Of a DNA stretch of 64,000 nt, positions 1,042 through 60,110 are shown in pieces. Numbering within the stretch: position 1 is the stretch's first letter; the number at the start of each line of letters is the position of its first letter. The DNA is from Eledone cirrhosa. Taxonomy: Eukaryota. A program made the translations under genes and the position numbers. The stretch lies in the NCBI GenBank assembly GCA_964016885.1, contig OZ024740.1, positions 84,692,001 through 84,756,000 on the forward strand, given 5' to 3'. The notes under the pieces were generated by a model, which saw only the letters and a list, made by a program, of their open reading frames with translations, ran no database searches and was not told where the DNA came from.

Positions 1042-1694
1042 TTTAGCACTGAGATCATAGTTATGGTCATTGCTGTTGTTGATTGGGGTGACATTGATAT
1101 GGTTGCAGCTGTAAGAGGTGTATGAGAATTTTCTCAACTGTTCTTGTGGTGTGAGTGGTGTTGGTGGCGGCGGCAGGGAGATTGATGCTGGGGGTGTGGT
1201 GCTGGGAGTGGTGCTGGGTAAGGTGACATTGTAGCTTATAGGGGTTGCTTTTCCGATGTTATTTTCTGTCTATTTTGAGTTTGAGGTGTAAATGGGGTGC
1301 TAGTATTCTTTTTTTTTCCCTTTGTTTTGTCCTTTATGTGGGCTCCATACACATACATAAATATACATTCACACGTGCATAGTTATACACACGTATGTAT
1401 ATATACACACATATATATATACCCACACATTAGACACTGAGAATTATTATTATTAGTATTATTATTATTGGACGCACATGTATGAAGACGTACAAGCCTG
1501 CGGGGGAAAAGGTTCGTAACTTTAAGCTGTTTTAAAGTATCATTTTTTGTATTTTCTTGTCGTTAACTAAACATAAGGTACTCACCTTGGTTTCAAGGAA
1601 GAGAGACCTCTCAATATTCGGGCTTTAAGCCCGAATATTCAAATTTATTTTTAAAAACTTCGAAAAAAATCGCTTCCCCACTAAAAAAAAAAAT

Positions 1695-2024
1695 ATGGAA
1701 ATTTTCGATCTTGAAACGGTAAACAACGTTCAGGTCAAAAGTTCAAAAGCAGCCACTGTAGATCTCACCACAACTACCTCTACTACAGACATGTCTGTCA
1801 ACCATTCCACTGAATGTGAAGGCAAAACTCAAAAGCTACCATCACAACCGCTCCCTTCTGTGTTAGGAGCAATATCATCTGAAAACGACATCACCACCAC
1901 CACCACCGCCGCCGCCACCACCACCACAACAACAACTCAGAACAACAACGACAATAACACCGACAGCTTCAATGTAAACACGGATGGCGGTGGCAACAGC
2001 AACAACAAACAAAACAACACCACC

Positions 2025-2084
<60 letters not shown>

Positions 2085-3735
2085 AACAACAACAATAACA
2101 ACAACAACAACAAGAAGAACGACAACACCAACAACAACAGCAACAGAGGCACCACCTTTGCTGCAGCAGCAGCAAAAACAAAGCGCTTATTGAATATTGA
2201 CATTAGCGATAAAGGCGAACAGTTGGCCCAGGCGTGGAGATTAATTAAACGGGAGAAGTCCTGGGAAAACCTGACCATCCCGGACGAGGCAATAGCGGCC
2301 ATGCAAAGGAGGACGGTGTACTTTCGATGCATTGCGGTGCAGACACGCAAAGTGGAACTTGCCAGCCAAGCAGAGGTCGGGGCTGTTTTGGCGTGCATCG
2401 GAAGTTACATAGAGTATAAAGCAAGGGCCAAACAGTTCGGTACCATTTCGGTACTGTTCAAAACCGAGGCCCTTGCTATTAAGCACTCGGTGACCCCCTG
2501 AAGAACGGAACGCATTATCATGCACCCGTTCTACATGGGTAAAAGGACAGTAAAGATCCGCATTCCCAGCATCCCACCAGGAATGAACATATGGTGGCTC
2601 CTGGGATGCGTAATCGAGGAAGGGATAGACACTACCCTCCTGGATATCAAAAGGACAGAGAGAGAAGACTGGTCCGGAATGGATTTGGAGATTCTTCTCC
2701 AAATGAAACCCGAGGACATGAACAACATCCCGGATTTTTCCCGCCTCCATGACGGGACAACAATCCAACTAATCACTGGGGGAAGAAGGCCGCACTGCTT
2801 CGTCTGCGGGGAAGCAACGCATCCACAAGCCTTCTGCCCTCAGCGCAAAAATGAAGGGGGTCGCAAACCTCCTTTGTTGCCAACGCGAGTGTCAGCACGG
2901 AAAGCTGCACCACCACCAGCACCAAAAACAACACCAACAAAGACACGGACACCAACATCAACAACAGCCGGACCACCACCAACACCGAAACCAATCCAAG
3001 GGGAAAACGAGGAAAGCTCTCCCCCACCCACCCACCCACCAATTATACACATAGACAAAACAATAAACGCACACACAGACACAGAGACACTCACAGCCAC
3101 AGACCCTTTGTCTTCCAGCAGTGAAGATGAAGGAAAACCCAAAAGTGCAAAAAAAAACAGAGAAAACTCACCAAAAAAAAGCCCCAACTAAAAACAAAAA
3201 ATACAGACACCACTAACGCAAACACTTCTCCAATAACATCAGCACCAACAGCAACATCGACACCACCCCCACAATCCCCGAAACGCAAACAACCTAAACA
3301 AACACAAGTACAAATAAACATACAAATACCTGAAATTGCAGACACCACACCTACAACAAACACAGACAACACCACCAAAACCATCACCACCACAGTCACC
3401 AAAAAAAAAAACAAATAAAATCACACCAACAAAATGTTAAGAACTTCGTGCTTGTCAGAAGGGCCAACGATAAACTGATGGCTCTCTTAGCATGAAGCGA
3501 GGACATTCAAACAGAAGGGGAGATCTTTGAAATGAGCACATTTTGCGTGCCAGAAGATTTGCTTCTGGTCAGAATGTCACTCGATTCCTTCAAAGAAATT
3601 CGGAAGAGCTTTCCTCAAGACGTGGGAACCTCGAATGTGAAACCCACATCGAGACTTTAAAAGGGGTTCCCAAAAGAAACCCCACCAACCATGGAGGTCG
3701 AACCACCCGGCCTTCACAAGACCCCGGGAGGTAGT
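1695..3735 (+). pseudogene. Tx1 family A ORF1 (gag-like, zinc knuckle), disrupted
   Basis: CFVCGEATHPQAFC knuckle; poly-Asn from (AAC)n; in-frame TGA at 2499-2501 and A-tract frameshifts; colinear with ORF1 at 50790-52755. Confidence 0.8.
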
Positions 3736-3766
3736 AAACCTTCCCTCTCTCTTTTAGCTTGCCAAC

Positions 3767-6700
3767 ATGGCCATATTAAGAGTAGGACGTTTAAATGTTC
3801 GCGGCCTGGTGTCACCCTGGAAGCAGTGTTGCCTGCTCAACGACCTCAGGTCGCTGGAAATGGGTGTGATTGCCGTCAGCGAAACCAGAATTTCCGACAC
3901 GCGCGCACTAGCCTCCATTTTCGACGACTATTAGATCTTCGCATCTGTTAGCAGGCCGGGAATAGGGTGTGGGGTGGCAGTGCTGTTTAGGAAAGGACTG
4001 GATCTCGAGTAAGGTCGATCTTCCGGGACCCGGACAGTAAGCTGGTGGTCTTGGATGTGAGCAGTAGCGAAGGTGGTGCCTTTAGACTGCTGGCCGTCTA
4101 CGCCCCTACAGGGGCCGGACGACCGGACTTCTTTAGGCGCCTAGAGACCTTTCTAGGCGCCTACAGGGGCCGGACGACTGGACTTCTTTAGGCGCCTAGA
4201 GACCTTTCTAGGTACGTCTCGCCCTTTACTGTTGGCGGGGGACTGGAACGGCATCTTAAACGCACGCTGGGATTGTGTGGGAGTAGCTGATAGGAGCGGG
4301 GGGTGAAAAAGCCTCAAGCACCTAATCAGCCAGTTCCAACTGTCTGACAGGTATCGACTAGATTTCCCCAATACGCCAGTATGGACATGGACCAACCGCA
4401 TGGGGTCATCTAGATCGTATATAGACAGGATCTTCATTAGGAAAATAGATAGAAATAGTGTAGGCTACCCACTTTTTAAAACGGTCGCCTATTCAGATCA
4501 CAAATTTGTGATCTGTATGGTCGACCTAAATAAAACGAGTAGGTTGGGACTGGGTTACTGGAAGCTGAACATGTCATTTCCGGCACGTAAGGCTTGCAGG
4601 GACCGAGTCAACAATTTAGTTAAGCAAAATGTTGACAGGGTGTGGGGTGATCATCAACAACAGATGGTGGGGGGCTCTCAAAAGAGAGATTAGAGTAACT
4701 TCGATAGAGTTCAGCAAAGAACTAGCGTTAGAGAAAAATAAAAAGGAGGGGGAGCTGGTAGATAAGTTAGACGAGGCTATTTGTAATGGCATTGAAACTG
4801 ACGTGCTAGCGGCGAGAATGGCAGTAGACCATTTCTTCAATGCGAAACACGAAGGTTGCATTGTCAGAGCTAAGGCGCGTGCGCTGAGAAACGAGGGAAC
4901 CAAAGCTGTTCGATGGGCCCGCGTGGCGGAGACGCAGCGTGGTAATAAAACCACAATTCGGTCTTTGGAGGACCGAGACGGACACGAGATAAGCGATTCC
5001 AAGCAGATGTGTGAAGCCTTTCGCCAGCATTTTGCTCGGTTGTTCGGAGAGAGTGGCGAGTCAGAGAGAGTAGCGGATTTCAGTCCCTACCTTGACGGCT
5101 TGCCGCACATCTCGACGGTCGACGCTGAGCGCTGCGAAAGGCCGATTACTTCAGCCGAAATTCAGGACGCCCTTGTCGGCTGCATGAGGCGCATGTCACC
5201 CGGTTTAGATGGCCTGCCCTACGAGCTCTACGTAAATATTCCAGATTTGTTCTCCGATCTCCTCGAAGCACTCTACTGAAACTGGCAGCAGAATGGGAGT
5301 ATTCCCAATTCTGTGAGCAGGGGAGTGGTGACGTTGGTAAGGAAAGACGAGAACAAGAGGGATACATTAGACAACTTCAGGCCCATAACTCTGCTCAACA
5401 CAGAGTTTAAGATTTTGGCCAAGGTGTTAGCAAAGAGATTGGCGCTTGTCGTTGAGGATTTGGTTGGGGAGGCGCAAACTTGCGCAATCCCAACCAGGTC
5501 CATACACGACAATCTCCACCTCATGCGATACATCGTAGAGAGGGTAGGGTGTAAACCTGGCTTCGATGGGGCACTAATCAATTTAGATCAATCGAAAGCA
5601 TTCGATAGGGTCGACCATCGGTATCTGGAGTTTGTCCTCAAAGAGGCTGGCTTCGACCCTGTCTTCAGAAGATGGATCGCTGCAATGCACGGCGACACAT
5701 GCTCGGTGGTCAAGGTTAATGGCCACCTCTCGAAACCATTTCGGCTCTCCCGATCGGTCAGTCAAGGGTGCTCTGTCTCTTCCCTTCTGTACGTATTGAC
5801 TCTCGAGCCTTTACTGCGGAAGCTGGAGCTGTTGCAGGGCATCCCGCTCGAACCAGGACGTGGAAAGGCGGTGTCGGCTTATGCGGACATCACTGTGATG
5901 GTGTCGGACACCTCAGAAATCGAGGTGGTCGACACCTTATTGAAGGAATATGAAAGGTTGACAAGAACCAAACTTAACCCGGAAAAGTCGGTGGGCTTTC
6001 AGGTCGGAACCTGGAGAGGCAAGCCTATGCCGTCCAACAGCGTTCAGGTGGAAAAACGACCTCCAGGTGGAAAAGAATTGGGACGAGGTAACGAGCAGCG
6101 TAGCCAATCTCACCCAAAAATGGGCTGGGAGGAAAGCTCGCGCCGAGGTGGCGAATGCGTACATCGCGTCCGTCATCTACTACCGCCTGACCATCGTGCC
6201 TTGCTCCCTTCCGCGCCTCGTCAAGTTGGAACGGCTCCTCTTCAAATTCTTGTGGAGGGGACAAGTTCCGTTGGTGAGGCGGTCCATCTGCTGCCAGCAC
6301 TCTCTACGCGGAGGGCTGGGCATGCCGTGGCTAATGATGCGCAGACATGCGTTGAGGCTGCGACATCTCCAGATATTCTGCCTAAACGGTGAACAGGTGT
6401 GGTCGCCGTTTATCAGACGGGCCTTTCCGCAGCTCATTTCTTTGACTGAGCTGCAGGCCTGGGTCAAGAAGAGACGGAAACTAGGTGACTGGCACCTGGA
6501 ATGTTGCCAGGCACTCACTGCCCTCTACCAAGCGGACAATGCGATCACTGGAACTTCCACTCTCGAGTTCTATAGAGGATTAGTGGTGGGCAAGTGTGAT
6601 GACGCACTCGGAGAAGCTTTGGGCCTCGACGAATTCGATCTGACAAGTCTGTACCGGAGGATTTTCGAGCCGGGACGATGGACAATTTCCAGAAATCCCT

Positions 6701-7021
6701 CGCTTGGCAGTGCTACCGGGGGGCACTGCCGGTTCGGGATAAATTCTACAGGCACGAAAGTGCTGTCAGACAGACCTGCCCAAGATGCGCACAGAACGAC
6801 GAAACCGTTCTGCACGCACTTGTCCAATGTCCGTGCATTACTGACTTGTGGAGTTATGTCGAACAGCTACTGTCACGTGTGGAACGAATCCGGCTATCGG
6901 CCGAGTCCATAGTGAAGATCGACCCGCCACCTTCCTTAGGTCAGGAAGAGCAGGAAATTTTCCTGTCTGGTGGCCGTTGCGAAAGAGGGTATATGGTGGA
7001 CCAGATTAAAAGGACTGAAGA
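3767..7021 (+). pseudogene. Tx1 family A ORF2 (APE endonuclease + reverse transcriptase), frameshifted
   Basis: MAILRVGRLNVRGL start; GDWN, SRSYIDRIF and YSDH APE motifs; FRPITLLNTEFKILAK, LDQSKAFDRVDH, SAYAD RT motifs; CPRC..ETVLHALVQC; tandem duplication at about 4101-4211. Confidence 0.9.
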
Positions 7022-10000
7022 CACCCCAAAAATTCACACCACCTCCTCACATACAAATCACTCGCATCACACAGAAAACTTACACGACAGTAAAACAAAA
7101 ATTCCCCAAGGATATCGGAGACTTCCGACAAGCACTCTCCAGGAGGATTTATAAGGACATCCTTCCGGAGGAGGCCACGAGCAGTGAGAAAGATGGAGAA
7201 ACCATCCTTCCTCTGCGAGAAGTAAGGTGAGTGGTCTTTCCCATCTTTTCCACTCCTTTTCAACACGGCCTCACTCAGAATAGGCAGCATAAATGCGCGT
7301 GGCTTGGGGTCGTCATTGAAGCAGGGCCACCTGCTCAACGACCTCAGGTCACTAAACATAGATGTGGTGGCCATCAGCGAGACCAGAATCTCCGAAGCAC
7401 AGGCCTTCGCACTGATCTTCGGCAGCTACGATTTGTACGCATCTCCCAGCCGTCCTGGATCGGGGGGTAGGAGTTGCTGTGCTTTTTCGGAGAGGTTTGA
7501 ATCTCGCCATACGGGCCATCTTCCTGGACCCAGAAGGTAAGTTGGTTGTGCTGGACGTGACCAGCGGAGACGGGCAAGCTTTCAGGCTAGTGGCCGCCTA
7601 TGCCCCGACAGGAGCAGGGCGGCCTGATTTCTTCCGGCGTCTGGAGACCTTTCTTGGAACGTCCCGCTCTTTAGTGTTAGTGGGCGACTGGAACGGGATC
7701 TTAGATGCACGCTGGGACTGTGTGGGATTAGCGGATAGGGGAGGAGGGTGAAAGAGCCTCTCTAACCTGCTCAGGCGTTTTGAACACTCTGACAGGTACC
7801 GATTGGATTTCCCGAATGTGCCAATGTGGACTTGGACAAATCGCATAGGGTCATCCAGATCATATCTAGATAGAGTATTTTGTGGGGAAATAGATAGGTC
7901 TAGCTTAGGCGGTCCACAATTCAAGATAGTCAGCTACATGGACCACAAATTCGTGATCTGTGTGGTTGACTTAGATAGGCTTCATAGACAAGGACCCGGC
8001 TACTGGAAGTTAAACGCATCCTTACCAGCGCGCAAGGCCTACAGGGTCCGGATTAGCGAACTAGTTAAGCGGGCGTTGACGGGGGCCATCGTCAACATCA
8101 AGTGGTGGTTTGCTCTGAAAAGAGCGATTAGAATAGAGTTCATTAGGTTTAGTAAGGCTTTAGCTTTAGAGAAAACTAGAGCAGAGGGCGAACTAGTTAG
8201 AAAATTAGACGAGGCGCTTAGCAAAGGCATCGCGACCGACCTACTTGCGGCGAAATTGACCCTTGACCAATTCTTCAATGCAAAGTACGAAGTGCTCTCA
8301 GACACGAGGGGACGAATGCCGTTCAATGGGCCCGAGTGGCGGAGGCGCGTCGTGGCCACAAAGCCACGATCCGGTCTTTGGTGGACCACGACGGACGCAT
8401 GCTACTCGATCCCGGGCAAATGTGTAAAGCTTTTCAGCGACACTTCGCTCAGCTGTTCGGGGACAGCGGCAGGCCGGATCGAGGGATGGACTTTAGTGTT
8501 TACCTCGACGGACTGCCGCGGCTCTCGTTGCGAAAAGCCGATAACAGCCGCTGAAGTATGGGAGGCAATGACTGGATGCACAGGGGTAAATCGCCTGGTT
8601 TGGATGGTCTGCTCTATGAACTTTACGTGAGCCAAGGAGCGGTGGCGCTGCTGAGAAAGGATCCGAACAAGGGGGATCACATAGATATTTTCAGGCCCAT
8701 AACTTTGCTAAACTCAGAGTTCAAGAATTTGGCCAAGGTGCTAGCAAAGAGGTTGGCGCTTATCGTTGGTGGTCTGGTGGGAGAGGCGCAGACGTGCGCC
8801 ATTCCCGACAGATCCATCCACGACAACCTCCACCTCATGCGATACATCGTAGAGAGGGTAGCTAGGGAACCTGGCATGGGTGGGTCCTTGATCAATTTAG
8901 ATCAGTCGAAAGCTTCTATGTGCTCTGTGGTGAGAGTGAACGGTCACCTTTCGGAACCGTTCAACATCATACGTTCGGTCCACCAACGATGTCCCCTCTC
9001 GTCCCTCTTGTACGTAATGACTCTCGAGCCATTACCGCACAAACTGGAGACGTTGAGGGGGGACTCGCGCGAACTAGAATGCGGAATATCCGTGACAGCA
9101 TATGCGTACGATGTCACTGTAGTGGTGTCGAACGCCAAACACATCGAGGCGATCGGCACTACACTAAGAGAATACGAAGCGGTGACAGGAGCAATGATCA
9201 ACCAGGAAAAGTCAGTGGGCCTGCAGCTCGGCACCTGGAGAGGCAGGTCCATGCCGTCCAACAGCGTCGTCGGGCGCTGGACGGACGGACCAGTTAAATT
9301 GCTAGGGGTCTGGTTCGGTCCGGACCTCCAGACGGACAAAAACTGGGACGAGGTGACGAGCAGGGTGGCTTCTCTCACCCAGAAATGGGTGGAGAGGAAG
9401 CTATCCCTGAAAGGTCGAGCGGAGGTGGCCAACGTGTACATCGCGTCCGTCATCTACTACCACCTGACCGTCGTACCTTGTCCTAAGCCCCGCCTGACTG
9501 CGCTGGAGCGTTTGCTCTTTCGCTTTTTGTGGAAGGGACGCGCTCCGTTGGTCAGGCGGTCCATCTGCTGTCAACACCCGCTACGTGGAGGGCTGGAATT
9601 GTTGTGGCTGATGATGCGCAGACACGCGCTCAGGCTACGAGATCTCCACCTCTTCCTCGACGGTGATCAGGTGTGGTCTCCGTATGCTAGACACGTCTTT
9701 CCCCAGCTCGTCTCCTTGACGGAGCTGCAGTCCTGGGTCAAGCGAAGACCGAGAGGGAGCGCTTGGAGACTGGAATGTCTTCAGGCGCTCACAGCCCTCG
9801 ACCAATCGGGCAATGTGGTCGGTGGAAACACCACCTTGGCGTTCTATAGAGGATTAGTGGAGGGGAAGAGCGACGACGTACTTGGAGAAACTCTAGGCGT
9901 CGACGAAAATCAACTAGCCAACCTCTTCGGAAGGACTTTCGGGCCGGGGCCTATGGACAACTTCCATAAATCCCTGGCCTGGCAGTGCTACCGAGGAGCC

Positions 10001-10711
10001 TTGCCAGTTCGGGATAATCTCTACAGGCATGGAGGTGCCGTCAGCCGGGTATGTCCGAGATGCGCGCAGGGCGACGAAACCGTCCTGCACGCACTCGTCC
10101 AGTGTCCGAGCATTTCTGACTTGTGGGTTTATGTCGAACACCTGCTTTCACGTGTAGGACGGATCCGGCTATCAGCTGAGTCCATCGTGAGGATTGCCCT
10201 TCCCTCTTACTCTAGCCGGGAAGGGCAGGAAGTTTTTATCTGTCTGGTGGCCATGGCGAAAGAGATAGTATGGTGGACACGTTTGAAAGGGCTGAAGACG
10301 AGCACTTACCTCTTCGGTGATGCCCTGATTAACTTTTTCAAATTTCATTTGAAAAGGAAAATCAGGGTAGAGAGGGAAGTGCTCTCTTCCCAGCATTTTG
10401 TTGAAAGATGGGTGAGAGAAGCAAGTATGGCCCGAGTGAATGGGCCTACTCTGAGTATGTGTCTGTAAATTAAAGGTGGAAAACTGGGAGAGGGCACTTG
10501 CCCTGGTGGTCAGGGTCACTGTGGTCTTTTAATGGGCTTACTCCACAAATGTTCCTCGGAAGTCTCCCCCCTATTGGGGAATTGTTCTTTGTTATTTTAT
10601 TACATCCTCTGTTTTTTTTTACACGCAGAAATGCCCATTTGTACCGTACTGTATTGTCCTGTACTGTCCTTAATGTCTACTTTATGTAAACCCTTGTGGT
10701 TAATAAAGAAA

Positions 10712-10712
<1 letters not shown>
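7022..10712 (+). mobile_element. L1/Tx1-clade LINE, family B, 5'-truncated within ORF1, with internal deletions
   Basis: Highly similar to the reverse complement of 47092-50995; ORF2 remnants to stop at 10468; 3' UTR with AATAAA followed by (ATT)n. Confidence 0.93.

Positions 10713-10765
<53 letters not shown>
10713..10765. repeat. (ATT)n microsatellite at Tx1 3' junction
   Basis: Direct observation. Confidence 0.95.
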
Positions 10766-11441: not shown

Positions 11442-11478
<37 letters not shown>

Positions 11479-11481
<3 letters not shown>

Positions 11482-11686
11482 CGAGTAGGACCCCGACGGC
11501 TGAGCTCAAGCCGTTTCGACGGCTAATTCTGGACTAAATCAGATTTAGTCCAGAATTAGCCGTCGAAACTGCTTGAGCTCAGCTGTCGGGGTCCTACTCG
11601 CTCCTATTACCCACTCTACTACCCTAAGTATTGAGTACTTTGGTGCGTTATGGTCCACCTGGTTCCTTACCACATTTCCTTCGTTA
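11479..11686 (+). mobile_element. Fold-back PLE-like 3' fragment (family A) in (TA)n
   Basis: About 60-bp inverted arms centred near 11540; hammerhead 3' half (GAAAC-stem III-GTC); flanked by (TA)n; further copies at 24085, 33822, 37871. Confidence 0.75.
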
Positions 11687-11875
11687 TATATATATATATA
11701 TCTTTATGGCTATCATCGAAATATATATAGCAGTAAATAAAGGATTATGAGTTCATGCAATTGACTTATGTTTCGTCACTATATATCTTTATATATATAT
11801 ATGAATGTGTGTATGTATATTTATATATATATGTGTATGTATGCATACATGAATACATGTCTGTAAGTATGTGTA

Positions 11876-19211: not shown

Positions 19212-20095
19212 AGAAGAAAGAAGAATACTGCGCGGTTTGCACATGGGTTACATATGATAAAAATAGTCCTTCGTCAGTGATTTTCCAACCATCATTGGCA
19301 TTTCATCGCATTAAAAATCATATACCTCAGGTTGGTGCGAGCAATAGCTAAAAAAAGTTATTGGGACCAGTAATTCGCGTAAAGCGAGGGGGACAAGTAA
19401 ACAACATAGAAGGATAAAAGCAAACCGAAGATAGGAAAATAAACAAGCAACATGGTTGTCCGGTCAGCATAAGCTGGGTTGATTTCATGAGCGAGAGAGG
19501 TACAGAGAGGGGGCGAAAGAAGGTGAGAGAAACAGAGAGAGTCAATGGTGGATGGAAAATCACTGACGAAGGACTATTTTTATCATATGTAACCCATGTG
19601 CAAACCACGCAGTATTCTTCTTTCTTCTCATGTTTTTTATCTCACCTTCTTTCGCCCCTCTGTCAGTTACACTTTCTCTCGACTGACCTCTTCCTCACAC
19701 TTCCACTCACTCACTCTCTGTTTCTCCCCTTCTCACTTCCTCCCGTTTGGCTTGTGTGGGTCTCTTCTTGCTCACATCTCACACACATCAACACGGTCTG
19801 TACCTCTCTCGCTCATGAAATCCACCCAGTTTATGCTGACCGGACAACCATGCTGCTTGTTTATTTTCCTATCTTCGGTTTGCTTTTATCCTTCTATGTT
19901 GTTTACTTGTCCCCCTCGCTTTACGCGAATTACTGGTCCCAATAACTTTTTTTAGCTATTGCTCGCACCAACCTGAGGTATATGATTTTTAATGTGATGA
20001 AATGCCAATGATGGTTGGAAAATCACTGACGAAGGACTATTTTTATCATATGTAACCCATGTGCAAACCACGCAGTATTCTTCTTTCTTCTCATG

Positions 20096-20100
<5 letters not shown>
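19212..20100 (+). mobile_element. Fold-back element family B with direct and inverted terminal repeats, in (TA)n
   Basis: 19212-19505 is an inverted copy of about 19797-20090; 19554-19638 is a direct copy of 20017-20100; related to 36880-37773. Confidence 0.75.
19968..20018 (+). ncRNA. Predicted box C/D-type kink-turn hairpin
   Basis: CCAAC-CUGA-GGUAU ... AUGCC-AAU-GAU-GGUUGG: C-stem, 3-nt bulge, G.A/A.G, U.U, 6-bp NC stem; covaries with 37621-37673. Confidence 0.7.
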
Positions 20101-21580
<1,480 letters not shown>

Positions 21581-24050: not shown

Positions 24051-24084
<34 letters not shown>

Positions 24085-24086
<2 letters not shown>

Positions 24087-24277
24087 ACGAAGGAAATGTG
24101 GTAAGGAACCAGGTGGACCATAACGTACCAAAGTACTCAATACTTAGGATAGTAGAGTGGGTAATAGGAACGAGTAGGACCCCGACGGCTGAGCTCAAGC
24201 CGTTTCGACGGCTAATTCTGGACTCAGAATTAGCCGTCGAAACGGCTTGAGCTCAGCCGTCGGGGTCCTACTCGTTC
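24085..24277 (-). mobile_element. Fold-back PLE-like 3' fragment (family A)
   Basis: Reverse complement of the 11479-11686 family; partial duplicate at 23947-23988. Confidence 0.75.
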
Positions 24278-24355
24278 ATATATATATATATACATATATC
24301 AAGTAAGTATGTTTTGAAACAGTGAGCAGGTTTGAAATTAGAAAATAGAATAGCT

Positions 24356-33790: not shown

Positions 33791-33821
<31 letters not shown>

Positions 33822-33826
<5 letters not shown>

Positions 33827-34016
33827 AACCAGTAAGACCCCGACAGCTGAGCTCAAGCCGTTTCGACGGCTAATTCTGGAGTCCAGAATTAGCGGTCGAA
33901 ACGGCTTGAGCTCAGCTGTCGGGGTCTTACTGGTTCCTATTACCCACTCTACTACCTCAAGTATTGAGTACTTTGGTGCGTTATGGTCCACCTGGTTCCT
34001 TACCACATTTCCTCCG

Positions 34017-34019
<3 letters not shown>
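33822..34019 (+). mobile_element. Fold-back PLE-like 3' fragment (family A)
   Basis: Family match; (TA)n on both sides. Confidence 0.78.
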
Positions 34020-34082
<63 letters not shown>

Positions 34083-34085
<3 letters not shown>

Positions 34086-36484: not shown

Positions 36485-36520
36485 TCTTCTGATGAACGAC
36501 TAGCGTCCGAAACGTTAAGA
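36485..36520 (+). ncRNA. Minimal hammerhead ribozyme
   Basis: TCTT-CTGATGA-acGAC-tagc-GTC-c-GAAACGT-T-AAGA. Confidence 0.65.
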
Positions 36521-36806: not shown

Positions 36807-36877
<71 letters not shown>

Positions 36878-36879
36878 CC

Positions 36880-37280
36880 TCTTCCTCACACTTTCACTCA
36901 CTCACTCTCTGCTACTCACCCTCTCTCTCTCACTTCCTCCATCGTTCCACATCGTGCCAAATTCTTTCCTCGCTTACTTTCGCACGGTTAAGATGTGTCT
37001 TTCGTCTTCTCCTCAATATTCGCAAGTTCTTATGTTCAAATGAATCATTGACTTGATTTTCTCATTTTTTCCTCTCTTTACGTTGCCTCACCATTCGTGT
37101 TTGTTCATCTGTCTCTCTTTCTCCACCCAATTATTTGTATCCCAATAACTTATTTTAGTTATTGTTCGGGCTAGCCTGAGGTATCTGGACTTTAATGCGA
37201 AGAAATACCTATGATGGCTAGTAGACCACTGATGATAGATAGTCCTGGCTTCTATTTCTAATTCTTCATTTTAATTTGTA

Positions 37281-37320
<40 letters not shown>

Positions 37321-37773
37321 AATTAAAATGAAGAATTAGAAATATGAAGAATTAGAAATAGAAGCCAGGACTATCCATCATCAGTGGTCTACTAGCCATC
37401 ATAGGTATTTCTTCGCATTAAAGTCCAGATACCTCAGGCTAGCCCGAACAATTCATCTTCTCGTCAATATTCAGAAGTTCTTATGTTCAAATGAATCATT
37501 GATATAATTTTCTCATTTTTTCCTCTCTTTACGTTGCCTCACCATTCGTGTTTGTTTACCTATCTCTCTTTGTCCACCTAATTCTTTTTATCCCAATAAC
37601 TTATTTTAGTTATTGTTCGGGCTAGCCTGAGGTATCTGGTCTTTAATGCGAAGAAATACCTATGATGGCTAGTAGACCACTGATGATGGATAGTCCTGGC
37701 TTCTATTTCTAATTCTTCATTTTAATTTGTATATCACATTTGCAACAACACAGCACACCATTTTTCATTCATT
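36880..37773 (+). mobile_element. Element family B' (relative of 19212-20100): direct, inverted and direct copies around (TA)n
   Basis: About 37010-37280 and 37460-37732 are direct copies; 37316-37451 is an inverted copy; shares hairpin, K-turn and CTGATGA with family B. Confidence 0.72.
37621..37673 (+). ncRNA. Predicted box C/D-type kink-turn hairpin (second copy at 37170-37222)
   Basis: GCUAGC-CUGA-GGUAU ... AUACC-UAU-GAU-GGCUAGU. Confidence 0.7.
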
Positions 37774-37804
<31 letters not shown>

Positions 37805-37870
37805 TAAGATCAAAAGATGGTTAAAGGAGTTCCATGTATTTTATTATGCGCATATATATATATATATATA

Positions 37871-38069
37871 TAGGAACGAGTAGGACCCCTACGGCTGAGC
37901 TCAAGCCGTTTCGACGGCTAATTCTGGACTCATGTCCAGAATTAGCCGTCGAAACGGCTTGAGCTCACCCGTCGGGGTCCTACTCGTTCCTATTACCCAC
38001 TCTACTACCCTAAGTATTGAGTACTTTGGTGCGTTATGGTCCACTTGGTTCCTTACCACATTTCCTTCG

Positions 38070-38072
<3 letters not shown>
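37871..38072 (+). mobile_element. Fold-back PLE-like 3' fragment (family A)
   Basis: Family match; (TA)n on both sides. Confidence 0.78.
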
Positions 38073-38131
<59 letters not shown>

Positions 38132-39101
38132 AATAAACATACATATATATATATATATTGTTATGCTTTGGGAGGGTCATGTTGCCAATAAGAAACACAC
38201 GCACCAGTTATTTCACTCCAATTTATTATAAATTAAATTTATAAATTTAAGAATTTATAAATTTCCGGTTTTTTGGTTGGTTCCATAACCGGACGGTTGT
38301 TCATATATTGTCAAAGTTCTTTCGTCCACATTATGTGACCTCTTCAGTGACTGGGGATTCTTTTCTTTGTTTTGTGCCTCTCCTTTGTTCTGTCCTACGC
38401 CATCTTGTTTTTGTGTGTGCTGAGTGCTTAGTTTGCGCATGTGTTACATCCGGGTGTCTGTGTGTATTTTTATTTGTTTATTTATTTGTTTATTTACATG
38501 TTACTAGTTAGTTGTTTGTTCTATGTGTGTGTGTGTTTTCATTTTGTCCTTAATTGTAAGTTGTGATGTTGCTATTCCATTCATGTTTTCTATTTAATTT
38601 TGGTTGGAGTTCATTTATGTTTATTGCCTCTGTGATTTGTCTAAACATTGCGTCTTTTCTGTGTGTAGATTCTATTTTTATTTCTATGTTCTCTAATTTG
38701 CCCTTATGTTCTATTTTAGCATGTTGGTGGAGTGTGTTAGTGATGTGGGATTGCATGTGTTAGTGATGTGGGATTGCATTGCCTGGATGTAGTTTGACAG
38801 ACTGTCAACCGACATTCTGCCAGACTTGTCTGTTGGAAAGCATGCAATCTCTCCATTACGCGAGCGCTGCATGAGCTTACGCAAGCCATTTGCAGATTTG
38901 TCTCCCAGTTGCTGGGCCTCCATTCTATTTTGCTTCTTTCTATGCTGTTCTATAATATTTCTAAGTTTAGATCTAGCTATACTAAATTGTGCTTCTGTTT
39001 GTTCATCGACCTGCGACGGCAATTGAGGGCGTTTGTTAAAAGCTAAAGTCGTGGTGTGGACTCGTCGTAGGTCGAAGGACATATCGGAAGGATTATAAAA
39101 T

Positions 39102-41201
39102 GGCAGAATGTCGGTTGACAGTCTATCAAACTACATCCAGGCAATGCAACCCCACATCACTAACACAAGAGAAGTAACACCGCAAGAGCATGAGGATAGG
39201 GAGAAAACTCTCAATGCCCATATGATGATGTGGACAAACATAATGCAGCCCAATAAAAGGACTGCCAACAACTTCCAGGCATGGAACAATGACGTGCCAG
39301 CGTTGTATGGGCTTCGAAAAGATCATAAAACGAGCAGTGACCCTGTCACAGGACCACCAACACGGCCAGTCTGTGGAGCTAACATTGCTAGTAACTACAG
39401 ACTTTTCTACTTCCTCTCCCTGATCATACGCCCCATCATTGAAATGTCCCCAGATATATGTAACCGCACGGAGGACCTCCTCAGCAGAATCAGCGAAAGT
39501 AACCGATCTGGGGACCTAACGGACTGTATAATAGGTAGTATGGATGTTGTGTCCCTATATCCATCCATTGACGTGGATTTTGCTGTGGAGAAATGCGTAG
39601 AAATGATCAGTGAGAGCAATGTTGAATTCCGTGGGATTGATACCAGTGAGCTGGGACTCCTACTTAAACTTACCTATAGAAATGATTATCTAGATACACA
39701 TGACCTTAGCAACCTGTGCCCTACAAGACCAGCAAGAGGCAGACCACCTACCATTACCTCAATGGCCAAGAAAACCCACACAGAAAGATGGAACGGGTGG
39801 ACCAGAGCCATACGGACCCCCAAAAACCACGATGAACTAAAGAAAATGATTGCACATGCGGTGGGGACCAGTATAAAATTAACCCTTAAGGAACATATGT
39901 TCAAATTTAATGGAAAAACATATGCCTAAGAGGAGGGAGCAGCCATTGGTGTTACCATTGCAGGTGACATAGCTAACCTATTCATGGTATGGTGGGACAA
40001 TAAATTTAAACTTAAACTTAAAGAAGAATTAGAAGACAGCAACTCTTAACCCTGATTATGTACTCTCGCTACGTTGATGATATAATCATCGTAGTAAAAA
40101 CACCCCCACTAGAGAACAGTCAGGAATTAGAGAAAAACACCATGGAAAGCATCCAGCAAATAGCTAACTCCATCCACCAGAATATTAGAGTTACTATAGA
40201 CTACCCAATCAAACACCCCAACCATCGATTACCTGTACTAGACACAGAGCTCTGGTTAGAAACCATTAATAACAAAAAACAAATCCTCCATTCCCATTAT
40301 GCCAAACCCATGACTTCCAAATATCTGATCCACCGAAACTCAGCTGTTTCGGATCACACCAAAATCAACATACTGATTGCGGATTTGGTACGGGTGATGA
40401 GAAACGTGTCCCGCATGTGCAACCCCAAAGAACTAGAGAGACACATACAACACTTCATCCACCGTATGCAGTTCTCTGGTTACAATCAGAGAGATAAAAT
40501 CAGAGTATATAGAGGAGCCAGAACCAAATGGGAAAAAATGGTAAATAATGATACAAATGGGACCTGCCCCTTGTATAGGAGCAAATTTTGGAATAGAATA
40601 GAAAGAACTAGGAATAAGGTTAATAGAATAAACTCATGGTATGATAGCAATAAATACCAGAGTGTAATGTACATCAATACAACCCCTAGAGGTAAATTAG
40701 CTTACAAATTTAGAAGGGCCCTAGATAAACATAAACTTAATATTAAGATAGTAGAAAGACCAGGTACCTCCATAAAAAACACTTATTAGCAATACATACC
40801 CTTTTCAAAGACCTCCCTGTATAGATAAGAAATGCATAATCTGTAAACTAAGCCCCCATATTAACTGTAAAACTAGAAATGTAGTATATAGCTTAAGATG
40901 TACTGAAGGACAATGTAAAGATAAGAATATAGTGTACATAGGTGAGACAGCTCGTAGCATAGGAGAACGGTTAAATGAACACTGGCGAGAACTTCAAGAT
41001 AAAAAAGAATCATCAATACTCCACCAACATGCTAAAGTAAAACATAAGGGCAAATTAGAGAACATAGAAATAAAAATAGAATCTACACACAGAAAAGACG
41101 CAATGTTTAGACAAATCACAGAGGCAATAAACATAAATGAACTCCAACCAAAATTAAATAGAAAACATGAGTGGAACAGCAACATCACAACTTACAATTA
41201 A
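39102..41201 (+). pseudogene. PLE RT + GIY-YIG endonuclease ORF, disrupted
   Basis: YGLRKDHK, RPVCGA, GSMDVVSLYPSI, GAAIG, YSRYVDD; Cx4Cx2C linker; NVVY..C..YIGETARS..ERLNEH; stops at 39927 and 40787 plus a frameshift. Confidence 0.88.
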
Positions 41202-41399
41202 GGACAAAATGAAAACACACACACACATAGAACAAACAACCAACCAGTAATATGTAAATAAACAAATAAATAAACAAATATAAACACATACAGACACCCG
41301 GATGTAACACATGCGCAATCTAAGCACACAACACACACAAAAACAAGATGGCGTAGGACAGAACAAAGGAGAGGCACAAAACAAAGAAAAGAATCCCCA

Positions 41400-41442
41400 G
41401 TCATTGAAGAGGTCACAGAATGTGTGACGAAAGAACTTTGAC
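41400..41442 (+). ncRNA. Minimal hammerhead in PLE pLTR (intact core in inverted copy 38310-38352)
   Basis: GTCA-(C/T)TGAAGA-stem II-GAAAG-AA-CT-T-TGAC. Confidence 0.65.
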
Positions 41443-41768
41443 AATATATGAACAACTGTCCGGTTATGGAACCAACCAACCGGAAATTTATAAATTCTTA
41501 AATTTATAAATTTAATTTATAATGAATTGGAGTGAAACAACTGGTGCGTGTGTTTCTTATTGGCAACATGACCCTCCCAAAGTATAACAATATTGGTTTC
41601 AACACACGTTTTCAAATAAAGAATCTTGGTAAACAAATTCAGAAACGAAATATATATATATATATATATATTTATTAAAATGACAGATTAAAGTTTTAGC
41701 AAAGAATCGCTGCTTTTACCCTTATCGAACCGTCTTTGGGTTTTAGTCCTCAAATTTATTATTATTAC

Positions 41769-41840: not shown

Positions 41841-43213
41841 GTATAGGATTATCCAAGATGCAGTGATGGTTAATTACTACACTGGATATGGTTGACGTAC
41901 GGTAAGAGGTTACTCTACGAGTTATGGAAGAATTGTTCAAGAAACTTAGTTCCTGATCCTTCAGTATTCCGGAGTGTATATAAAGAATGAATAATAACAG
42001 GTAGACATCATAAAAAGGTAGTTTATTCCATGTGCTTACAAGTGTTTCCACGGTGGTACTGCAGCCTAGTTCCGCTACGTGCAAATTCACAAGTATTTGC
42101 AGAACTCGAATATCCAATGCTGTGACCACTGTTTCCTCAGAGCAGAATGGTAAATATACAATGTAAAAACCCTTAAGTGGGGTTGTTGGGGAAGATAGAG
42201 TGGAACAGGAAGAGAGAAAAGTAGGGAAGATGGAGAGAGAAGGAAAGATATGCAGGGGTTGGAGAAGTAGGAGAGAGTGGCTTGTAGATATCATAATCAA
42301 AATGTTATGGTAGGGGTTTTATTAGTTACTTTTGGAGAGATGCGTAGATAGTTGAGGTCGGAATTATTTATTGCCCCAGAGGTCAGGTTCATAGATGTTG
42401 AGAGGGAGGTAGGTCAAAGGTGAGAGAGAGAGAGTGTAATGGATGTAGAGAGAGATATATAGGTAGAGAGGGGACAGATAAAGTATATGTGGTGAGTGAA
42501 CTTTTGGTTTCGTAGTAGTAATCTAGGAATTGTACTGAGTTACCATGTATAGTGATAAGCAGTGTATTGTCTTGTAGTGTGGGGGAGAAGAGAAGGTTGT
42601 TAGCTAGAAAGTGGTGTTGTAGTTACGGGTTCGAATGTTAAGTTATTTTATAGTGAGAGAATTTAGCTTTTAGTTTGTGGTTGCAGTATAATGATCGTTC
42701 AATTCTATCGTTAAGTAATTTGTTTTTGGATTTTAGTATGTAAAATAGCTCAAGGTTACAGAACCTGCAGTACTTCAAACCACTCCGATATGCATTTGCG
42801 CTGGAAAGTATATCCCATTTTAAGGTGAACTGTTGGTTGTGTTCGCGGAGTTGCCAGGTCTTGTTGGCGAGCGTGGTCACAAAACGGTGATTCTGATGTT
42901 TGATTGAGAATCGATGACGGTACCAGCGGAACTAGGCTGCAGTACCACCGTGGAAACACTTGTAAGCACACGGAATAAACTACCTTTTTATGATGTCTAC
43001 CTGTTATTATTCATTCTTTATATACACTCCGGAATACTGAAGGATCAGGAACTAAGTTTCTTGAACAATTCTTCCATAACTCGTAGAGTAACCTCTTACC
43101 GTACGTCAACCATATCCAGTGTAGTAATTAACCATCACTGCATCTTGGATAATCCTATACCTAATAATCGCCTCCTACATAGTTGAGCAACCACATCGAC
43201 ACACGGCATTAAT

Positions 43214-45541
43214 ATGGAAAGGCATCATATAGGTATGTCACTTAAAAACATACCTATACCTAACAAAAGGGAATATATTCTCAGTATGATTCAACGCAGT
43301 AACGACTTCATTCGGCGTGTACGATGGAAAGCTTTCCACTTCGATAAAGGACGTGCCAATCACTCGTCTGAATCATATGGTTTTAAATCATGTAAAAACC
43401 CACCTACAAACCCTCACCTCGAAGCTTTCGAACAGGACTTATTGAAAACTACCATGAACATTAAGTTCAACAGACATAGAAATAATGAGCTGCAGAACAA
43501 CATGAAAGCACTACTCCGAAGATTGCAAAATACCAATGGAATTGTTGTGAAAGCTGACAAGACTTCTAACGTCTATACCATGGATATCGATGCGTATAAT
43601 AACTTCATACGCAACGAACTACACAAAAAATATAGAAAAACAAATGAAACTACGCTAGCAAATATTAACAACGAGGCATACAAAGTGGTAAAGAATCTCA
43701 AGATAGACGATAGAACCGAGCCGATTATACCCGCTACCCCCATCTTCAACCTGAAGGACCATAAGGTAAATTTTGACTCTAACCCTAAGATTAGACTTAT
43801 ATGCCCTTCTAAATCAGACATAGGGAAAATTAGTAAACATATACTTGACAGAGTAATAACTCAAGTGAAAAAGAAAATTGAAATTAAATTATGGGGCAAC
43901 ACTAGCGAAGCAATTCGCTGGTTTAATAATGTTAAGAATAAGAATAAATCTAAGTTTATACAATTTGACATAGACGAATACTACTCTTCCATCTCACCAA
44001 GCACTTTACGTAAGGCCCTATCGTTTGCTAAGGCCAATTCCGACCTAACGGAGGAAGAAATTAATATTATTCTCGAGGCTAGAAAAACCATTATTAAGTT
44101 CGATAACTGCTACTGGGAACGTAAGGACAGACCCACAAATTTCGATATTACCATGGGTTCCAACGACTCGGCGGAGGTCACGGATCTCGTGGGAATTTAC
44201 ATAGCCCACATATTACATAGTAGATTTAGTAATCTACAGGGGGGGATATATAGAGATGACGGGCTCTTATTAGTTAATAACTTGAATAACCAAAATCTTG
44301 AAAGGCTACGGAAAAATATTAGAAAATCTTTTAGTGAACTGGGCCTAAAAATAACATACGAATACAATCTAAAGGTAGTAAACTTTCTGGACGTAACTCT
44401 TAATTTAAATACCGGACAGATACGACCCTTCCACAAGGTAAATGAGAACCTTACGTATATTGACTTTAACTCTAACCACCCACTCTCCATGATCAAATCA
44501 GTTCCCCGGAGTATTTCTCTTAGAATCTCTCGCCTATCGTCTAACTCTGATATTTTTAGCGAACATGCTGAATACTACAATAATGCATTAAGGAATGCTG
44601 ACCACCGGGATACAATAGAATACATCGATAGTAATTTCCACAACACACATAGCTCTACACGTAATCAAGGTATACGTAACCGGGGGACTAAAACACAAGC
44701 ACACACACACTATACTACCAGACATACTAATAATAGAAGTTCACCACCAAATAAATCACGTTGTAGAAAGTATATCTGGTATAATCCTATTTTTAATGCC
44801 TCGATTAGTACAAAACTATCTCTTTCATTCTTTAAATTAATCAATAAACACTTCCCTAGTTCCCATAAGTACAGCAAAATTCTGAACTCCAAAACTATTA
44901 GACTATCATACTCCACGGCACCAAACCTTGAAGCATACATAAAAAAACTTAACTTAAGGCAATTAAACAACTCTACAAAACAAAACATTTTAGTAACAGG
45001 TGGGCAGAACGCAATATCTGCCTCCCAACCACTAAATGGGAGACGGGTATTGCACAACCCACCTGTACCGCTATCACAACCTATCCATGGTATACCCGCT
45101 ACCCACAACAAAGCATGTAACTGCCATCTACCTGAATGATGTCCATTGCAGAATGAATGCCTAAAGTCCAACATTGTTTACCAATGCACGGTTGAATCGG
45201 ACGACCAGAAATGGTATTATATCGGATCTACCACCACATCGTTTAAATCTCGCTGGTACCGTCATCGATTCTCAATCAAACATCAGAATCACCGTTTTGT
45301 GACCACGCTCGCCAACAAGACCTGGCAACTCCGCGAACACAACCAACAGTTCACCTTAAAATGGGATATACTTTCCAGCGCAAATGCATATCGGAGTGGT
45401 TTGAAGTACTGCAGGTTATGTAACCTTGAGCTATTTTACATACTAAAATCCCAAAACAAATTACTTAACGATAGAATTGAACGATCATTATACTGCAACC
45501 ACAAACTAAAAGCTAAATTCTCTCACTATAAAATAACTTAA
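43214..45541 (+). CDS. PLE polyprotein RT + GIY-YIG, 775 codons with one in-frame TGA (45137-45139)
   Basis: KADKT, FIQFDIDEYYSSI, ITMGS, GGIYRDDGL, VVNFLDVTL, CNCHLPE*CPL (CxCx5C), NIVYQC..YYIGST..FKSRWYRH. Confidence 0.85.
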
Positions 45542-46034
45542 CATTCGAACCCGTAACTACAACACCACTTTCTAGCTAACAACCTTCTCTTCTCCCCCAC
45601 ACTACAAGACAATACACTGCTTATCACTATACATGGTAACTCAGTACAATTCCTAGATTACTACTACGAAACCAAAAGTTCACTCACCACATATACTTTA
45701 TCTGTCCCCTCTCTACCTATATATCTCTCTCTACATCCATTACACTCTCTCTCTCTCACCTTTGACCTACCTCCCTCTCAACATCTATGAACCTGACCTC
45801 TGGGGCAATAAATAATTCCGACCTCAACTATCTACGCATCTCTCCAAAAGTAACTAATAAAACCCCTACCATAACATTTTGATTATGATATCTACAAGCC
45901 ACTCTCTCCTACTTCTCCAACCCCTGCATATCTTTCCTTCTCTCTCCATCTTCCCTACTTTTCTCTCTTCCTGTTCCACTCTATCTTCCCCAACAACCCC
46001 ACTTAAGGGTTTTTACATTGTATATTTACCATTC

Positions 46035-46146
46035 TGCTCTGAGGAAACAGTGGTCACAGCATTGGATATTCGAGTTCTGCAAATACTTGTGAATTTGCAC
46101 GTAGCGGAACTAGGCTGCAGTACCACCGTGGAAACACTTGTAAGCA
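46035..46146 (+). ncRNA. Type-I hammerhead with extended stem II in PLE pLTR
   Basis: TGCT-CTGAGGA-ACAGTGGT...ACCACCGT-GAAAC-ACTT-GT-A-AGCA. Confidence 0.72.
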
Positions 46147-46193
46147 CACGGAATAAACTACCTTTTTATGATGTCTACCTGTTATTATTCATT

Positions 46194-46263
<70 letters not shown>

Positions 46264-47010: not shown

Positions 47011-47334
47011 AAGAAGAAGAAGAAGAAGAAGAAGAAGAAGAAGAAGAAGAAGAAGAAGAAGAAGAAGAAGAAGAAGAAGAAGAAGAAGAATGTTTTCTTT
47101 ATTAACCACAAGGTTTCACATAAAGTAGACATTAAGGACAGTACAGGACAATACAGGACGGTACAAATGGGCATTTCTGCGTGTAAAAAAACAGAGGTTG
47201 AAATAAAATAACAAAGAAAAATTCCCCAATAGGGGGGAGACTTCCAAGGGACATTTGTGGAGAAAGCCCATTAAAAGACCACAGTGGCCCTGACCACCAG
47301 GGCAAGTGCCCTCTCCCAGTTTTCCACCTTTAAT

Positions 47335-50300: not shown

Positions 50301-50755
50301 CAATCCCAGCGTGCATCTAAGATCCCGTTCCAGTCGCCCACTAACACTAAAGAGCGGGACGTTCCAAGAAAGGTCTCCAGACGCCGGAAGAAATCAGGCC
50401 GCCCTGCTCCTGTCGGGGCATAGACGGCCACTAACCTGAAAGCTTGCCCGTCTCCGCTGGTCACGTCCAGCACCACCAACTTACCTTCTGGGTCCAGGAA
50501 GATGGCCCGTATGGCAAGATCCAAACCTCTCCGAAAAAGCACAGCAACTCCTCCCCCCGATCCCGGACGGCTGGGAGATGCGTACACATCGTAGCCGCCG
50601 AAGATCGGTGCGAAAGCCTCTGCTTCGGAGATTCTGGTCTCGCTGATGGCCACTACATCTATGTTTAGTGACCTGAGGTCGTTGAGCAGGTGGCCCTGCT
50701 TCCATGACGACCCCAAGGCACGCGCATTTATGCTGCCTATTCTGAGTGAGGTCAT
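47335..50755 (-). CDS. Tx1 ORF2 (APE-RT-Cys domain), single frameshift at a G-run near 48741-48748
   Basis: MTSLRIGSINARAL, SETRI, GDWN, YLDRVF, YTDH; RPITLLN, LDQSKAFDRV, QGCPLS, YADD; CPRC..HALVQC. Confidence 0.92.
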
Positions 50756-50789
50756 GTTGAAAAGGAGTGGAAAAGATGGGAAAGACCAC

Positions 50790-52755: not shown

Positions 52756-52964
52756 TTTTTTTCAAAGAAATTTTTGGATAATAATAAAAGTTAAAATTTT
52801 GGGCACAAGGCCCCAATGTTTTTGGGTGTCCTTTTCGGAAAACAATGTATGTGTGCTTATAAACAGTTAACAATAAAATTTTCCATAAATGGCAATTTTT
52901 AAACAAACGGAAATAACAAACCTTTGCGGAGCTCACGATAATACGATTTCCTACGTAGGTCGCC

Positions 52965-58135: not shown

Positions 58136-58440
58136 CTTCAGAATATTAATAAATATAGACATTCATGTGATCAAATATATTTTATTATACATATTTCAGA
58201 GATACTGAGCTATTTCAACAGTACGTCCTCATCAGATAAAATAAGTTGATGCCTGACATACCTTGACTATGTTGATGGTTATAATTTAGTCATGGCAGAC
58301 ATAGTCAAGGTATGTCAGGCATCAACTTATTTTATCTGATGAGGACGTTCTATTGAAATAGCTCAGTATCTCTGAAATATGTATAATAAAATATATTTGA
58401 TCACATGAATGTCTATATTTATTAATATTTTGAAGTAATA
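58131..58440 (+). mobile_element. Fold-back PLE-like fragment
   Basis: 58131-58272 inverted vs 58299-58440; TTAT-CTGATGA...GAAAT..ATAA hammerhead-like motif at 58332-58386. Confidence 0.7.
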
Positions 58441-60071: not shown

Positions 60072-60110
60072 CCGAGCTGAAGATCCGCAAGGTGAAACAT
60101 TTGTTCTCGG
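60072..60110 (+). ncRNA. Minimal hammerhead ribozyme (relative of 56961-57000)
   Basis: CCGAG-CTGAAGA-tCCgcaaGGt-GAAAC-ATTT-GT-T-CTCGG. Confidence 0.78.

Follow-up and report, generated by a model that had tools for sequence, protein, structure and literature searches.

A probable hammerhead ribozyme of S-G-C block order in non-coding tandem elements of Eledone cirrhosa, likely non-autonomous derivatives of Naiad retroelements

Introduction

What kind of RNA is conserved in two TA-targeted insertions in the genome of Eledone cirrhosa? Both insertions lie in a stretch of 64,000 nucleotides (assembly GCA_964016885.1, contig OZ024740.1, positions 84,692,001 to 84,756,000 of the forward strand), which was analysed as a whole and is called the window below. 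A sequence-only reading of this DNA had described a canonical kink-turn (K-turn) hairpin followed by CUGAYGA in a Penelope-like (PLE-type) element, and had proposed that the RNA recruits an L7Ae-type host protein, that it derives from a snoRNA, or that it is a new or permuted ribozyme. When the window was re-read, every feature named there was located in its place.

Naiad PLEs have been reported to be without canonical hammerheads, but some of them, including Naiad_Ovul, were flagged as 'HHR_core' or 'HHR_half_core' (PMC8557442). Characteristic of Naiads is insertion at (TA)n, in partial tandems and with a truncated copy in inverse orientation (PMC8557442). For hammerheads, an order of cleavage site (S), GAAA (G) and CUGAnGA (C) was named type SGC by Eckert et al. 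(2023; PMC10085705), who measured cleavage at 0.007-0.19 per minute and described, for the active ribozymes, a 3-nt linker and a helix between stems I and II. In this study, we asked whether the conserved RNA belongs with any of these.

Results

Layout of the insertions in the window

The window contains five modules, two of family B (one inverted) and three of family B' (one inverted and 5'-cut), all within TA microsatellites; their parts are listed in Table 1. The family B insertion is arranged like a typical partial tandem of Penelope-like elements with inversion. As expected of a Naiad derivative, the insertions lack an ORF, lie at a (TA)n target and comprise partial tandems together with an inverted truncated copy; the layout of both agrees with the published description (PMC8557442), in keeping with the PLE-type assignment made earlier. 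The stems reported for family B', CUAGCC/GGCUAG and AUCC/GGAU, are present, and the suggested outer closing stem corresponds to P1 (19934-19939 with 20034-20039). In the window copy of family B, the C-stem consists of GGUAU (19977-19981) and AUGCC (20002-20006), and the P2 hairpin has one A.C mismatch; P2 is absent in family C and has another sequence in family D. The view of B and B' as two diverged families stands in that both are present, but they are homologous beyond the module (73-80%, in several blocks) and are therefore relatives, not separate inventions.

Table 1. Coordinates of the two insertions and of the predicted parts of the module (window positions).
Feature	Position	Strand	Remarks
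Family B insertion, within TA microsatellite	19212..20100	.	inverted 5'-truncated copy, then partial 3' tail, then main unit
Main unit B	19640..20100	+	5'-truncated portion of ~529-nt non-coding monomer
Partial upstream B copy	19543..19640	+	equals 20006-20103; starts 23 nt 3' of predicted cut
Inverted truncated B copy	19212..19506	-	complete second module (H17 19321, G12 19304, C3 19277)
P1, 5' strand	19934..19939	+	closes module by pairing with 20034-20039
P2 hairpin	19940..19961	+	on bridging strand
Displaced stem II strand	19963..19967	+	pseudoknot pairing with 19993-19997; covariation helix 1
Stem I-II interaction helix, 5' strand CCAACC	19968..19973	+	partner GGUUGG 20013-20018; K-turn non-canonical side; covariation helix 2
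K-turn n-strand UGA	19974..19976	+	
Block S	19977..19982	+	stem III 5' strand, U16.1 19981, H17 19982; covariation helix 3
Stem I, 5' strand	19983..19989	+	pseudoknot pairing with 20019-20025; covariation helix 4
UAA linker, 3 nt	19990..19992	+	joins stem I and stem II strands
Block G	19993..20006	+	stem II strand, N11.1, G12-A13-A14-A15.1 (19999-20002), stem III 3' strand
K-turn bulge AAU and b-strand GAU	20007..20012	+	
Block C	20019..20033	+	stem I 3' strand, CUGACGA (20026-20032), one base more
Family B' insertion	36877..37773	.	~575-nt monomer family, three modules
B' modules			+ copy H17 37185 (stem I, P1 mutated); inverted 5'-cut copy; + copy H17 37636
Best-preserved B' module	37585..37695	+	H17 37636, G12 37653, C3 37680

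Families, copy number and carriers

In the whole genome, a pattern of the K-turn plus CUGA gave 2,379 exact matches and a pattern of the B-type 3' half gave 5,085, each against 0 in the reversed control; the module occurs far above chance. Patterns restricted to the 3' half revealed further families with other stems (64 matches, and in another search 774 versus 1 in the control). Unit lengths taken from tandem copies are 528-529 nt for B1 and B2, 575 nt for B', 634 nt for B3, 344 nt for C and 762 nt for D. Non-coding and arranged in tandem, the carrier units measure 344-762 nt and contain 66-74% pyrimidine; the longest ATG frames in doubled pyrimidine-rich units reach 33-182 aa. Copies of family B are 92-99% alike. 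Different module families are often neighbours within one TA run. At locus L241 (G000:C1:67918000-67923000) a further D-type tandem family lies directly 3' of a B trimer, and at L213 (G000:C1:110227659-110230692) a short palindromic insertion consists of two 3' halves of yet another module family.

In the Rfam search that had been recommended, no family reached its gathering score; the best match in the element was snR66 with 24.7 bits at a cut-off of 65, and matches to miRNA families were rejected as microsatellite artefacts. Minimum free energy folding, a method that cannot form pseudoknots, was not significant (z of -1.3 to -1.5 for four sequences and +0.6 for a fifth).

A hammerhead core with displaced strands

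The element had been characterised as lacking a normal hammerhead. Its strand order is indeed unusual, but the module carries all hammerhead elements, namely NUH (19980-19982), GAAA (19999-20002), CUGAnGA (20026-20032) and stems I and III, with the GAAA placed within the 'loop' of the K-turn hairpin. The idea of a permuted ribozyme thus held, but CUGAYGA had been placed opposite CAAU, and its partner is the true GAAA; a type II hammerhead with CAAU in place of GAAA was rejected for this reason. HDV-like and twister folds were rejected as their remaining strands are absent. An alignment of 102 distinct copies revealed two extra pairings that covary between B and B'. In the loop of the K-turn hairpin, the 5' part is paired with the bases immediately before CUGAYGA and the 3' part with the strand preceding the hairpin. 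The earlier fold is supported by covariation but had missed these two pseudoknot stems, which complete the hammerhead. The resulting block order is S-G-C, which is no circular permutation of types I-III, and the predicted cut lies between 19982 and 19983 in the window copy of family B.

At the level of single positions, C3-U4-G5-A6-N7-G8-A9 stands immediately 3' of stem I (20026-20032 after 20019-20025), and G12-A13-A14 is followed by A15.1-U16.1 and stem III. As GAAA, UGAU and CUGAnGA formed part of the search patterns, the invariance of these motifs is built in. A generic S-G-C descriptor found three modules in the window as against 0-1 per shuffled window (4 matches in 20 shuffles). We then took 174 distinct copies chosen by 3'-half patterns alone. 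In 109 of them, an S block further upstream can pair with stem I as well as with stem III, the spacing mostly being 18 (67 copies) or 16 (27 copies); many of the other 65 are 5'-truncated. As controls, 116 metagenome matches to a similar pattern and 7,676 cross-family pairings were put to the same test, which 4 and 551 of them passed, respectively. Among the 109 copies, position H17, left unspecified in the search patterns, is occupied by A (56 copies), C (36), U (15) or G (2); a base other than G, as the hammerhead rule (NUH) demands, stands in 107 of 109 (p ~1e-7 against 18% G).

The covariation check that had been suggested was carried out on 14 rows from families B, B', C, D, E and G, which are related to one another and 11 of which were picked from copies pairing at >=21 of 24 positions (94 of 168 copies). 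In these rows, 90.7% of cells are paired, compared with 67.1% when shuffled and 33-46% when slid, and 20 of 24 pairs are altered on both sides as against 15.7 when shuffled. All four helices covary, i.e., the displaced stem II, the I-II interaction, stem III and stem I. Stem I is 93.9% paired and each of its 7 pairs covaries; in stem III 4 of 5 pairs covary and the U-A pair is present in 13 of 14 rows; the 5-bp helix before G12, whose partner strand lies upstream, is 85.7% paired. Between the base after A9 and N11.1 there is a standard pair in 68 of the 109 copies; the remaining 41 are mismatched, for the most part as A.C in family D. Stem II is unusual, and the geometry at G12 is a predicted one. 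The AA of the UAA linker, a position absent from the search patterns, is invariant in 14 of 14 rows. This linker (19990-19992) is near-invariant in all families and yet unpaired in the model, and a tertiary contact is possible.

With all core nucleotides at fixed spacing, the four helices and the NUH rule, the module is probably a self-cleaving hammerhead of S-G-C order, and its non-coding tandem carriers, which occur in TA microsatellites in thousands of copies, are likely non-autonomous Naiad derivatives.

Insertion junctions and the proposed cycle

The 5' junctions of truncated copies joined to TA were compared with the predicted cut at 57 loci, 35 of which came from the D pattern and 22 from usable loci of family B, after a single complex one had been dropped. 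By hand tally among the matches listed, 48 of the 57 junctions lie at or 3' of the predicted cut (p ~1e-6), some of them exactly at it, and the other nine within 14-16 nt 5' of it. Against the family references, the junction step was 17 then 1 per 16 nt in D, 14 then 6 in C and 3 then 1 in B, and is thus weaker in C and B. Without offsets -6 to -10 the junctions number 20 versus 9 (p 0.006), and the six cut-adjacent bases alone give 6 versus 9 (p 0.28). Microhomology of the UAA linker with the target explains part of the pile-up, which as a sign of cutting is suggestive. The 3' ends of the insertions lie 111-121 nt past the predicted cut, with a TA run in range for 27 of 34 modules, which would fit copying from circular or multimeric RNA.

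Potentially, transcription through tandem units would yield an RNA with one self-cleavage per unit, 3' of NUH. Unit-length RNA would be released and possibly circularised as described for retrozymes, and the reverse transcriptase/GIY-YIG endonuclease of a Naiad would copy it into (TA)n in trans. The metazoan non-LTR retrozymes (bioRxiv 10.64898/2026.07.22.740005) are similar, being non-coding tandem monomers from PLE terminal repeats with one hammerhead per unit. According to the available part of that preprint, however, their hammerheads are type I and circularly ordered, whereas the module is non-circular and points to Naiads.

It could be argued that the fold derives from a hammerhead but has lost catalysis, and serves as a 3' element for protein binding or recognition by a reverse transcriptase, its partner being e.g. 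the element's own enzyme or SNU13. The split stem II and the frequent mismatch beside G12 speak for such a relic, as does the end of the insertions well 3' of the predicted cut and not at it. However, a relic is not expected to keep a base other than G at H17 while A, C and U vary freely, nor to retain the whole core across families with unlike stem sequences. We regard a non-catalytic fold as unlikely and retain the reading as a ribozyme.

The kink-turn

The K-turn had been called canonical, and its geometry proved right: a three-nucleotide bulge, tandem G.A/A.G pairs and two helices, which define a standard K-turn, are present in the consensus of B, B', C, E and G. Families B and B' moreover resemble the box C/D K-turn (PMC5689011) in the NRU sequence of the three-base bulge, the U.U pair and the G:C pair at 4b:4n. 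They differ from it in that the K-turn of the module sits in a ribozyme arm and not in a guide RNA, that -1b:-1n is C:G in B and U:A in C, and that the motif is lost in D. The combination of U:U at 3b:3n with G:C at 4b:4n is that of box C/D and folds poorly without L7Ae (PMC5689011). As B and B' have these pairs, which impair unaided folding, gating by a protein is thinkable.

Both a 3' RNA that recruits an L7Ae-family protein through its K-turn and a retroposon derived from a box C/D snoRNA had been proposed, and the 3b:3n and 4b:4n pairs of B/B' would suit either. The NGA strand is likewise present in 52 of 74 copies outside family D (22 of 26 B-type, 30 of 48 C/E/G copies). In contrast, it is found in none of 35 copies of family D, where the G.A pairs are swapped for Watson-Crick pairs plus a bulge, and coral, cubozoan, hydrozoan, ctenophore and clam-shrimp Naiads, read by eye, have a plain bulge or loop at this position. 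Since family D and the non-cephalopod Naiads lack the G.A pairs, recruitment of L7Ae cannot be the core function, although a role for it is possible. The K-turn is a side part of a larger RNA. A snoRNA origin is not supported, with no upstream C box and no Rfam snoRNA match, and neither proposal explains the GAAA, the NUH and the two pseudoknots. We consider it very improbable that protein recruitment or a snoRNA ancestry accounts for the module, and the hammerhead reading is kept.

The mutation rate at the G/A positions, also put forward as a check, was at the background level in B' (0.046 per site and copy against 0.024-0.040), with 0 changes among 21 copies of B; these rates are uninformative because inserted copies decay neutrally. 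Origins from U3, U4 or a snoRNA were rejected from the sequence. By the usual criteria for such elements, a SECIS element was dismissed as well, as the K-turn strands occur in reversed order and no ORF is present.

Naiad elements and the search for an autonomous partner

Published Naiad consensuses were read by eye at their 3' ends. Naiad_Obim and Naiad_Ovul show the same architecture with a K-turn, and their 27-nt spacing from G12 to C3 and their P2 loop are identical to those of B'. The bulge or loop version is found in the Naiads Bfor (with a stem I of just 2 bp), 3_Chem, Amil, Aacu, Anas, 2_Movir and EuTe, whose hosts include coral, jellyfish, ctenophore and clam-shrimp. In the nematode Naiads Nbra-1, -2, -3, Hcon, Hpol and Asuum the order is C-S-G. 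In total, 15 of ~53 Naiad ends seen, each as an excerpt of ~330 nt, were parsed in this manner, the others being unparsed or having the motif beyond the excerpt. Like Naiad PLEs (PMC8557442), the module carriers are targeted to (TA)n and form partial tandems with an inverted truncated copy, and by eye their RNA architecture is that of the 3' ends of Naiad_Obim and Naiad_Ovul; they differ in having no ORF and hence in being non-autonomous.

Searches for an intact Naiad in the genome by pattern and by protein found none. A strict Naiad reverse transcriptase (RT) pattern had 0 matches; a loose pattern had 17 as against 17 in the control, several being decayed Naiad remnants; the DKA pattern had 9; and a Naiad protein search of the genome gave 85 matches, mostly with stops. 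No relative was detected in the metagenome contigs searched. Among 54 loci with decayed RT remnants, none had a 3'-end module of its own; two hold B-type copies, one being a dimer inserted separately in a TA run (L184) and the other a partial match (L167). Because the genome searches yielded no intact Naiad and no remnant with a module of its own, the Naiad link rests on the published consensuses as read by eye.

Mobilisation of an active ribozyme by another PLE clade with a C-terminal endonuclease (Neptune, Nematis or Hydra) would account for the failure to find an intact Naiad in spite of the closely similar B copies, and PLE ORFs with a C-terminal endonuclease are present in the window (39099-41200, 43187-45139). 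However, the terminal repeat of the window element at 39-41 kb has an ordinary type I hammerhead (38347-38320, minus), the unit sequences match no other window element, and module architecture and P2 loop match the Octopus Naiad ends by eye. Such a mobiliser is quite unlikely in our opinion, and a Naiad partner is preferred.

Discussion

The module resembles the type-SGC hammerheads (HRIMA-1 motif and variants; PMC10085705) in its S-G-C order, its CUGAnGA, GAAA and UH core, its 3-nt linker (here UAA) between stem I and stem II, the helix joining stems I and II and the two core pseudoknots. In the published descriptor, however, the stem II strand lies directly 3' of CUGAnGA, whereas in the module this block is interrupted: the strand after CUGAnGA pairs with P1, and the strand before GAAA pairs with 19963-19967. 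With stem II completed from the 5' side and CUGAnGA followed by a strand of a separate closing helix, the module would escape the published descriptor. A further difference is that a K-turn or bulge links both strands of stem III to the I-II helix. The source differs as well, since the SGC data come from assembled metatranscriptomes (PMC10085705, supplement) and the module resides in chromosomal retroelements of animals. Compared with SGC, the last segment, comprising the strand of stem II and one side of the I-II helix, would have been shifted to the 5' side, with P1 holding the ends. As a result of this shift, both strands of stem III would continue into the I-II helix. Judged by its sequence, the module would work like an SGC ribozyme but represent a further permutation that departs from SGC in one defining feature.

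A direct link between stem III and the I-II helix is hard to reconcile with the crystal structure (PMC10085705). As the K-turn is positioned exactly at this link, we infer that it may act as a hinge between stem III and the I-II helix, giving a sharp bend at the joint, for which a plain bulge would substitute in other families.

What appears to be new is the split-stem-II form of S-G-C, in elements where no ribozyme had been recognised; the hammerhead core and the SGC order are known. No PLE or retrotransposon paper describing a K-turn motif was found in a literature search that covered subscription papers thinly, and type SGC was found in Eckert et al. (2023) alone. In the available portions of the main text and supplement of that study, kink and Octopus do not occur, and Penelope is mentioned in the references alone. 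The search in the 2026 retrozyme preprint was, in its available part, confined to type I models, and the available part of PMC13725137 merely cites permutations.

It is tempting to speculate further that Naiads kept their ribozyme but reversed its block order, with split S-G-C in cephalopods, cnidarians, ctenophores and a crustacean and C-S-G in nematodes, that the cephalopod topology lies outside the six proposed permutations, and that its box C/D-type K-turn is a hinge through which bound host SNU13/15.5K turns self-cleavage on. Taken as a whole, this wider proposal is doubtful. If true, it would describe a natural protein-gated ribozyme with thousands of genomic copies. The more limited hammerhead reading is in itself a directly testable candidate answer to the puzzle of hammerhead-less Naiads, which are among the most abundant PLEs (PMC8557442): they would have been thought to be without hammerheads because the order of the core is scrambled. 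Non-circularly permuted ribozymes would be brought from metatranscriptome contigs into animal chromosomes of several phyla, in thousands of copies, and surveys with standard hammerhead descriptors would overlook such modules. The arrangement would also run counter to the view that the blocks of a hammerhead tolerate no interruption, and a K-turn at the joint of stem III and the I-II helix would be a natural solution to the geometry and a handle for crystallisation. The six nematode Naiads have apparently complete C-S-G hammerheads with an I-II helix; they would add six candidate C-S-G ribozymes to the two sequences given by Eckert et al. (2023; PMC10085705). The bivalve and hemichordate Naiads (PMC8557442), from oyster, pearl oyster, ark clam and acorn worm, have another conserved G+C-rich 3' motif, which by eye is not a hammerhead; another ribozyme is possible.

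Other repeats in the window

Other Penelope-like repeats of the window have CUGAnGA...GAAA cores in ordinary order, at 36489-36512, 38347-38320 (minus), 56966-56987, 59454-59427 (minus), 60077-60097 and 58213-58358. At 38155-41593 and 41977-46202 lie two Penelope-like elements whose ORFs are interrupted and whose terminal inverted copies are long; the first has a C-terminal GIY-YIG-like motif. Pfam returned nothing for four PLE ORFs of the window. Related non-LTR retrotransposons with endonuclease and reverse transcriptase are present on opposite strands at 1629-10764 and 47041-52761. Finally, a TA-targeted repeat of ~280 nt with a near-perfect internal palindrome of ~120 nt occurs in four copies (11448-11729, 24061-24299, 33804-34083 and 37852-38135).
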